DNA of 64,000 nt from positions 32,001 through 96,000 of the IMG/VR virus record IMGVR_UViG_3300005614_000001, one strand, 5' to 3'. This document shows, one piece after another, positions 57,790-58,246 of the stretch. The notes under the pieces were generated by a model. The model was not told the origin of the DNA and did no database searches. It saw nothing but the letters and a program-made list of their open reading frames with translations. The position numbers and the translations under genes were made by a program. The stretch's first letter is position 1. Each line of letters starts with the position of its first letter. This stretch comes from a virus (lineage: Duplodnaviria; Caudoviricetes).

Positions 57790-58076
57790 TATAACATTAC
57801 CATAATAACAATACAATAGAACAATACCAGGGAAAGTTTATCAAAATTTTGCAGACTGCAGGGAGCAATTTGCCTATCCCGGCAGTAAGTAGTTCCCAAT
57901 AGCAGTAAATAATTATTGGTTCAAAGTAATTCCCAACAGTCTATACTATCTGTAGGGATACTATAAGCGTCAATTCCTGGTAACTAATAAGAGATAATTA
58001 CTACTATAGTATCAAAATACAACGCTTATACTACCGGAGTAGATAGTATAGCACACAAATATTAACTTTTAGTTAA

Positions 58077-58092
58077 TGTTCCACGTGGAACA
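58077..58092. promoter_or_regulatory. parS: parS centromere-like site
   Basis: TGTTCCACGTGGAACA, perfect palindrome (18 bp with flanks), intergenic, matches bacterial chromosomal parS consensus. Confidence 0.85.
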
Positions 58093-58246
58093 TAGTAAAT
58101 TTATTCCATTTGTAGGTATTAAAAGAGCTGAATACTACGTATATAGTCTGAAATCAAACTAATTGAGTAGTTAAATAGCTACGGGTACTGATATAGTATA
58201 GCATTAACAACATATTTTTATATATTTACACTTAAAATCAATTATT

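Follow-up and report, generated by a model that had tools for sequence, protein, structure and literature searches.

Cis-acting centromeres are known from the extrachromosomal genomes of several phages. In P1 (parABS), N15 (sop) and mycobacteriophages (parABS), the centromere is encoded together with the phage's own ParA and ParB proteins and is not of the chromosomal type. A different arrangement was reportedly described by Meijer et al. in 2005 for the virulent Bacillus phages phi29 and Nf, which carry host-type parS sites. These phages have no ParB or ParA of their own, their sites have the parS sequence of the host chromosome, and involvement of the host ParB has been proposed or shown. 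The 19-kb, protein-primed genome of phi29 contains five such sites, which are dispersed and are used through the host Spo0J protein (PMC2731898). Their use, which is coupled to Spo0A boxes, is the trapping of the phage genome in the forespore of a spore-forming host. On the chromosome of Pseudomonas aeruginosa, one parS was found to be enough for a ParB complex of more than 8 kb and for segregation (PMC5098823). Thus, an orphan host-type parS on a phage genome is already a known kind of element from phi29. A literature search on parS or ParB in crAss-like phages revealed nothing relevant, and it appears that an orphan host parS has not been reported for this group.

We analyzed a 64-kb window (bases 32001–96000) of a virus record that represents a complete genome of 116,928 bp with 80-bp terminal repeats; all coordinates below refer to this window unless a relative is named. 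An 18-bp perfect palindrome, ATGTTCCACGTGGAACAT, occurs at 58076–58093, and its 16-bp core (58077–58092) conforms exactly to the parS pattern TGTTNCACGTGNAACA, which places it by sequence among chromosomal-type parS sites. The initial annotation had called this a perfect consensus match. This is correct for the documented symmetric CC/GG variant of parS, to which the 16-mer is identical, whereas the Bacillus consensus TGTTNCACGTGAAACA differs at position 12, where the phage has G. The intergenic position given in that annotation was confirmed: no ORF of at least 40 aa extends across the palindrome, and the only frame found was a trivial one of 28 aa that starts at the palindrome's own ATG. Neither Rfam, a tRNA scan nor a terminator scan yielded a match at the site, and a hairpin or terminator was rejected as an explanation (7-bp stem, 4-nt loop, without a U-tract). 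The core occurs once in the 116,928 bp of the complete genome, where it is single at up to two mismatches, and is single in the window at up to three mismatches. Based on our own arithmetic from base-composition counts, approximately 1e-5 exact copies of the 16-mer would be expected per genome by chance, and still fewer given CpG depletion, an estimate that bears out the earlier view that the match is very unlikely to be fortuitous. The genome is indeed CpG-poor, as had been noted, with an observed/expected ratio of 0.22 (771 CpG seen vs 3452 expected) and a normal GpC ratio (0.94). In total, it contains three 18-bp perfect palindromes.

Judged by its portal, large terminase and major capsid genes, the virus is a distant crAss-like phage. 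Its portal protein is ~25% identical to Crassvirales portals of Bacteroides, Cellulophaga and Azobacteroides phages and ~22% identical to Flavobacterium phage portals; the top isolate match was a Leptolyngbya phage (29% identity). The large terminase ORF (48430–51621, minus strand) is 1063 aa long; relatives and the PHROG terminase profile cover approximately its first 620 residues, and the C-terminal ~440 aa, which match other PHROGs of unknown function, may represent a fusion or insertion. Another ORF (6683–18742, minus strand) codes for 4019 aa and in its length recalls the giant RNA polymerase proteins that crAss-like phages package in their virions. The host phylum is likely Bacteroidota, as predicted only from the crAss-like structural genes and from TAnnTTTG boxes, which precede 8 of 61 late ORFs vs 1 of 61 on the opposite strand, a weak excess.

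The 16-mer of the phage corresponds, letter for letter, to parS2/parS3 of P. aeruginosa, which were bound by ParB in ChIP-seq (PMC5098823). When one genome of each prokaryote species was scanned, the exact 16-mer was detected across many phyla, including many Bacteroidota. In five Bacteroidota genomes (Chitinophaga, Chitinophagales, Algibacter, Flavobacterium and Daejeonella) it was present in 1–5 copies clustered on one contig, and each of these genomes had one ParB. The initial annotation had also proposed a comparison with parS of the predicted host. Within the likely host phylum the 16-mer is thus found in identical form, and 1–5 clustered TGTT[TC]CACGTG[AG]AACA sites, usually one or two, were detected in 60 of 81 sampled Bacteroidota genomes; the other 21 had no exact site of this pattern, and a reversed-pattern control gave no matches in the 81 genomes. 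A is preferred immediately before and T immediately after the bacterial 16-mer, which is the 18-bp form seen in the phage. The phage site shares with chromosomal parS of P. aeruginosa (parS2/3) and Bacteroidota its 16 bp, its A/T flanks and, given a candidate origin nearby, perhaps an origin-proximal location, and its single copy compares with one or two per replicon in most sampled Bacteroidota. In contrast to chromosomal ParABS systems, the phage replicon encodes neither ParA nor ParB. When the non-coding gap of the phage was compared with 120 bacterial parS loci, no homology was observed outside the motif and a small number of adjoining bases. Because of this lack of flank homology, a recent capture of host DNA is unlikely, and we rejected it as the source of the site.

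The palindrome is located in a non-coding gap of 518 bp (57729–58246), the largest in the genome between ORFs of at least 60 aa and a candidate origin or control region. The gap is ~2 kb from the minimum of cumulative GC skew, a measure confounded here with gene orientation, as the minimum coincides with the switch from a minus-strand late block to a plus-strand early block (divergent transcription). The gene that ends at the gap (57420–57728, plus strand) codes for a 102-aa HTH_36 protein (Pfam PF13730, E 1.5e-6) that also matched PHROG 270, annotated as replication initiation protein (E 2.4e-7), and PHROG 186 (E 1.7e-5). On the basis of these matches, it is similar to replication initiators and DnaD-like loaders in their N-terminal part. 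Three phased 18-bp palindromes of the form TAGGACA-N4-TGTCCTA, 23 bp apart, occupy 57726–57789; the set, whose start is marked by the stop codon of this gene, is absent from the rest of the genome and is likely an operator or a group of iterons of a phage protein, separate from parS. In addition, TAGTATAGCA is present twice on the plus strand (58044–58203, copies at 58044 and 58194), once on either side of parS, and has no other copies genome-wide.

Some further features of this region were noted. In relatives L132, L177, L152/L161 and L200, the syntenic non-coding DNA also contains GGACA...TGTCC palindromes; L132 has the identical 16-mer AGGACATGTATGTCCT, and the others have GGACA/TGTCC palindromes with differing spacers. 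By its recurrence, the TAGGACA-N4-TGTCCTA motif appears to be a second control motif that the phage family conserves. Two adjacent Rfam tRNA matches lie in the divergent early/late region (56079–56144 and 56153–56223, both plus strand); they scored 31.5 and 39.8 bits, above the gathering score, and ARAGORN predicted no tRNA anywhere in the window. A RepL-like assignment of the ORF at 56986–57408 was unsupported, as Pfam and PHROGs gave only DUF5487 (E 0.019) and one unknown PHROG.

Searching viral contigs with the portal or the adjacent HTH protein alone found no relatives, and a portal alignment was needed; portal homologs numbered in the thousands, and the alignment recovered 570 IMG/VR relatives. 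In whole-record scans of 24 portal relatives, the exact 16-mer was present in two and seemingly intergenic versions with one mismatch in four more, and a reversed-sequence control gave none. In all six, the site is 0.3–1.4 kb upstream of a homolog of the phage ORF 53685–54065, which comes first among the conserved genes of an operon extending through terminase and portal. In our phage, additional small genes inserted in between bring this distance to 4 kb. This variable spacing between the site and the nearest conserved late gene (0.3–4 kb) argues against a promoter-specific or precise operator role and fits a position-tolerant role, such as partition or SMC loading. The six relatives are 54–56% identical to the phage in the portal, their flanks are otherwise unalignable, and none of the early genes of the phage had a homolog near their sites.

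We further examined 80 loci, 38 of which include 5.6 kb or more of sequence upstream of the portal gene. The core TTYCAYRTGRAA is kept in 14 of these 38 relatives, which are at 54–56% portal identity to the phage, 3.9–5.6 kb upstream of the portal and mostly outside ORFs of at least 50 aa or within short unsupported ones. The 14 relatives have 14 different 16-mers, with variation in the outer bases, at position 5 (always T or C) and at position 12 (always A or G). The latter two positions have the same latitude in host parS. In a few of them the central CpG is lost to TpG or CpA. This pattern of T/C and A/G variation may be considered moderate evidence for parS identity and not more, because transitions are the commonest mutations. 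The figure of 14 of 38 is the clean non-coding one; a tally of 10 exact-core sites in 25 records includes some coding positions. Two recurrent parS-like positions in relatives were not counted since they are coding and explicable by protein conservation: one in a 176-aa ORF just after the portal gene, and one in the major capsid gene, translating there as M-V-T-R-E-T-G. With regard to the latter, the coding sequence of this capsid peptide gives a near-perfect or perfect parS core, GTTACACGTGAAAC (e.g., L169:15701 and L171:7419), and can produce false positives in parS scans of this crAss-like family.

The distribution of the site is patchy. It is missing from the three closest relatives (59–61% portal identity) and from the majority of the complete relatives. 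Eight reference crAss-like and related phages (crAss001, DAC17, phi14:2, FpV4, ProJPt-Bp1, Lbo-JY46, phi17:2 and cr1_1; six of them cultured isolates), 860 kb in all, had no match even at one mismatch. The site is therefore dispensable. Absence from close relatives had been named in the initial annotation as evidence against parS, and this is half the case: the three closest relatives lack the site, but many more distant ones have it. In a portal tree, the phage groups with the three site-less relatives, and a long branch separates them from a 77-member clade with a scattered occurrence of the site. Approximately 9–10 gains or losses are needed on this tree, and many of its rows are near-identical, so that the site-bearing relatives are non-independent. 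CpG is depleted in ten complete genomes of the family (observed/expected 0.18–0.52), and the site is kept despite this depletion. As for the depletion itself, seen in our phage (G000) and relatives G002–G012, one possibility is avoidance of CG-containing restriction or methylation targets.

We then asked which protein could bind the palindrome. A profile search of the complete genome gave no match to ParB_N (PF02195), HTH_ParB (PF17762) or ParA-type ATPases (PF13614 and PF01656), and a tyrosine integrase was not found either. Compared with the known phage systems, the genome does not have a self-contained partition cassette with ParA and ParB genes beside the centromere: P1, N15 and the mycobacteriophages encode their own ParA and ParB and use non-chromosomal centromeres, whereas the crAss-like phage shares with them only a cis centromere on an extrachromosomal genome, has no partition protein and carries the host's sequence. 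As in phi29, a host-type parS is found on a phage without ParA, ParB and integrase; unlike phi29, with its several dispersed sites, the crAss-like phage has one, in a 117-kb podovirus-type genome. Among 25 family genomes, no ParB_N was detected above the Pfam cut-off, and the sub-threshold ParB_N matches in three of them did not track the site. Two of these sub-threshold domains scored ~20–21 bits: one in a 252-aa ORF of relative G008 (G008:C1:110001-110213; L407), 3.5 kb from the parS-like site of that genome, and one in a ~250-aa ORF of G006 (G006:C1:3780-3968), a genome without the site. No ORF family near the site was shared by site-bearing genomes and missing from site-less ones, and no protein cluster tracked the site across 10 complete genomes (4 with and 6 without it). 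A DUF6717 protein, common to the phage and G008 near their sites, was rejected as a tracker as it is present in only two of the four site-bearing complete genomes. A core phage binder would make the site universal in the family and an accessory binder would co-occur with it; as neither pattern was observed, the best-fitting predicted binder is a host factor whose specificity is highly conserved, and ParB is known for exactly this sequence.

Other explanations have to be weighed against this one. The palindrome could be an operator for a phage-encoded regulator, e.g., a small early HTH protein, with its likeness to parS being due to coincidence or convergence. It does lie within the early genes, with an HTH gene and further palindromes close by, and in G008 the ParB_N-like ORF is found 3.5 kb from the site. 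However, G006 has such a sub-threshold ORF without having the site, and the site is single in our phage, while phage operators usually occur in sets. A different, triple palindrome already belongs to the HTH gene next to it, and a separate phage DNA-binding protein is thereby accounted for. Moreover, where relatives keep the site, its surroundings encode no homolog of any early-region protein of the phage, no protein cluster follows the site in the 10 complete genomes, and an exact 16/16 match to the host centromere, together with the variation that the host allows, would be surprising for an unrelated operator. We consider an operator unlikely.

It is also conceivable that the site belongs to the phage replication origin, or serves another host factor that recognizes CACGTG palindromes, and that ParB is irrelevant. 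The largest non-coding gap, the initiator-like HTH gene, the iteron-like repeats and the GC-skew minimum 2 kb away are all compatible with an origin. On the other hand, conservation extends over 12–16 bp, exactly in the parS register, relatives without the site presumably replicate normally, and to our knowledge no origin element has the sequence of this palindrome; such a role seems quite improbable. Finally, a single site that is missing from the closest relatives, in a genome with three 18-bp perfect palindromes overall, could be a neutral relic, i.e., recombined host DNA or a functionless chance palindrome. This would have to be reconciled with an estimated chance expectation of ~1e-5 per genome, with flanks that, except for a few bases next to the motif, lack homology to the 120 bacterial parS loci, with the recurrence of the site in syntenic non-coding DNA of deeply diverged relatives whose flanks have fully changed, and with its absence, even at one mismatch, from the 860 kb of reference phage genomes. 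We regard a relic as very improbable.

In our preferred interpretation, the palindrome represents an orphan parS of the host type, at which host ParB would load and which probably serves to position or partition phage DNA; based on sequence comparisons, we hold this to be the probable explanation, with moderate confidence. The earlier assignment as a parS-type site is itself well supported by the identity to a ParB-bound site, the identity to Bacteroidota sites, the lack of ParB and ParA in the phage and the syntenic recurrence. In the proposed mechanism, host ParB would recognize the 16-bp site, as its exact identity to validated and chromosomal parS suggests. Clamping that depends on CTP, followed by spreading or sliding, is established behavior of ParB; in the phage, ParB would close as such a clamp and move several kb over the origin-proximal early region. 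By analogy with phi29, host ParA, and possibly SMC, may then handle the phage genome as they do a chromosome origin region, with copies being positioned or partitioned to daughter cells. Downstream of ParB loading, partition, SMC loading or silencing may each be considered; the alternatives listed in the initial annotation were titration of host ParB, silencing of the adjacent early genes and SMC loading. The phage would provide the cis site alone, and all proteins would come from the host. Bacteroidota, the likely host phylum, form no endospores. The host of the crAss-like phage is thus probably non-sporulating, and the benefit must then differ from that of phi29, which uses its sites in the forespore. 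A likely benefit would be that phage DNA, although unintegrated, is stably maintained in dividing cells when infection is delayed or non-lytic.

A stronger version of the orphan parS interpretation can be put forward only tentatively: it is possible that this environmental crAss-like lineage persists as an unintegrated episome in dividing Bacteroidota by means of a single host centromere, the host ParABS system and possibly SMC. In that case, the site would be gained or lost according to host lineage or lifestyle. It is known that crAss-like phages persist for long periods without lysogeny. For crAss001, a delayed-lysis or carrier-like state has been described and is unexplained (PMC8375218), and crAss001 itself has no parS site in a scan at up to one mismatch. 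An episome of this kind, if real, would offer a concrete molecular basis for carrier-state or pseudolysogenic persistence of crAss-like phages. More generally, a centromere borrowed from the host and retained in place across an aquatic crAss-like lineage of deep divergence would be a simple, testable cis element for persistence, and, if true, would extend the phi29 strategy beyond spore-forming hosts, to another host phylum and to phages very unlike phi29.

Beyond this family, the exact 16-mer, TGTTCCACGTGGAACA, was found in more than 120 IMG/VR viral contigs (loci L002–L121 among them). When the larger contigs with the 16-mer were analyzed (those of at least 30 kb, plus one fragment), 31 of 32 had no ParB_N and most were single-copy, which suggests from sequence that orphan parS may be widespread among viruses. 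We also observed that one of the contigs, L049, is a more distant crAss-like one, in which the 16-mer lies between the portal and capsid genes.
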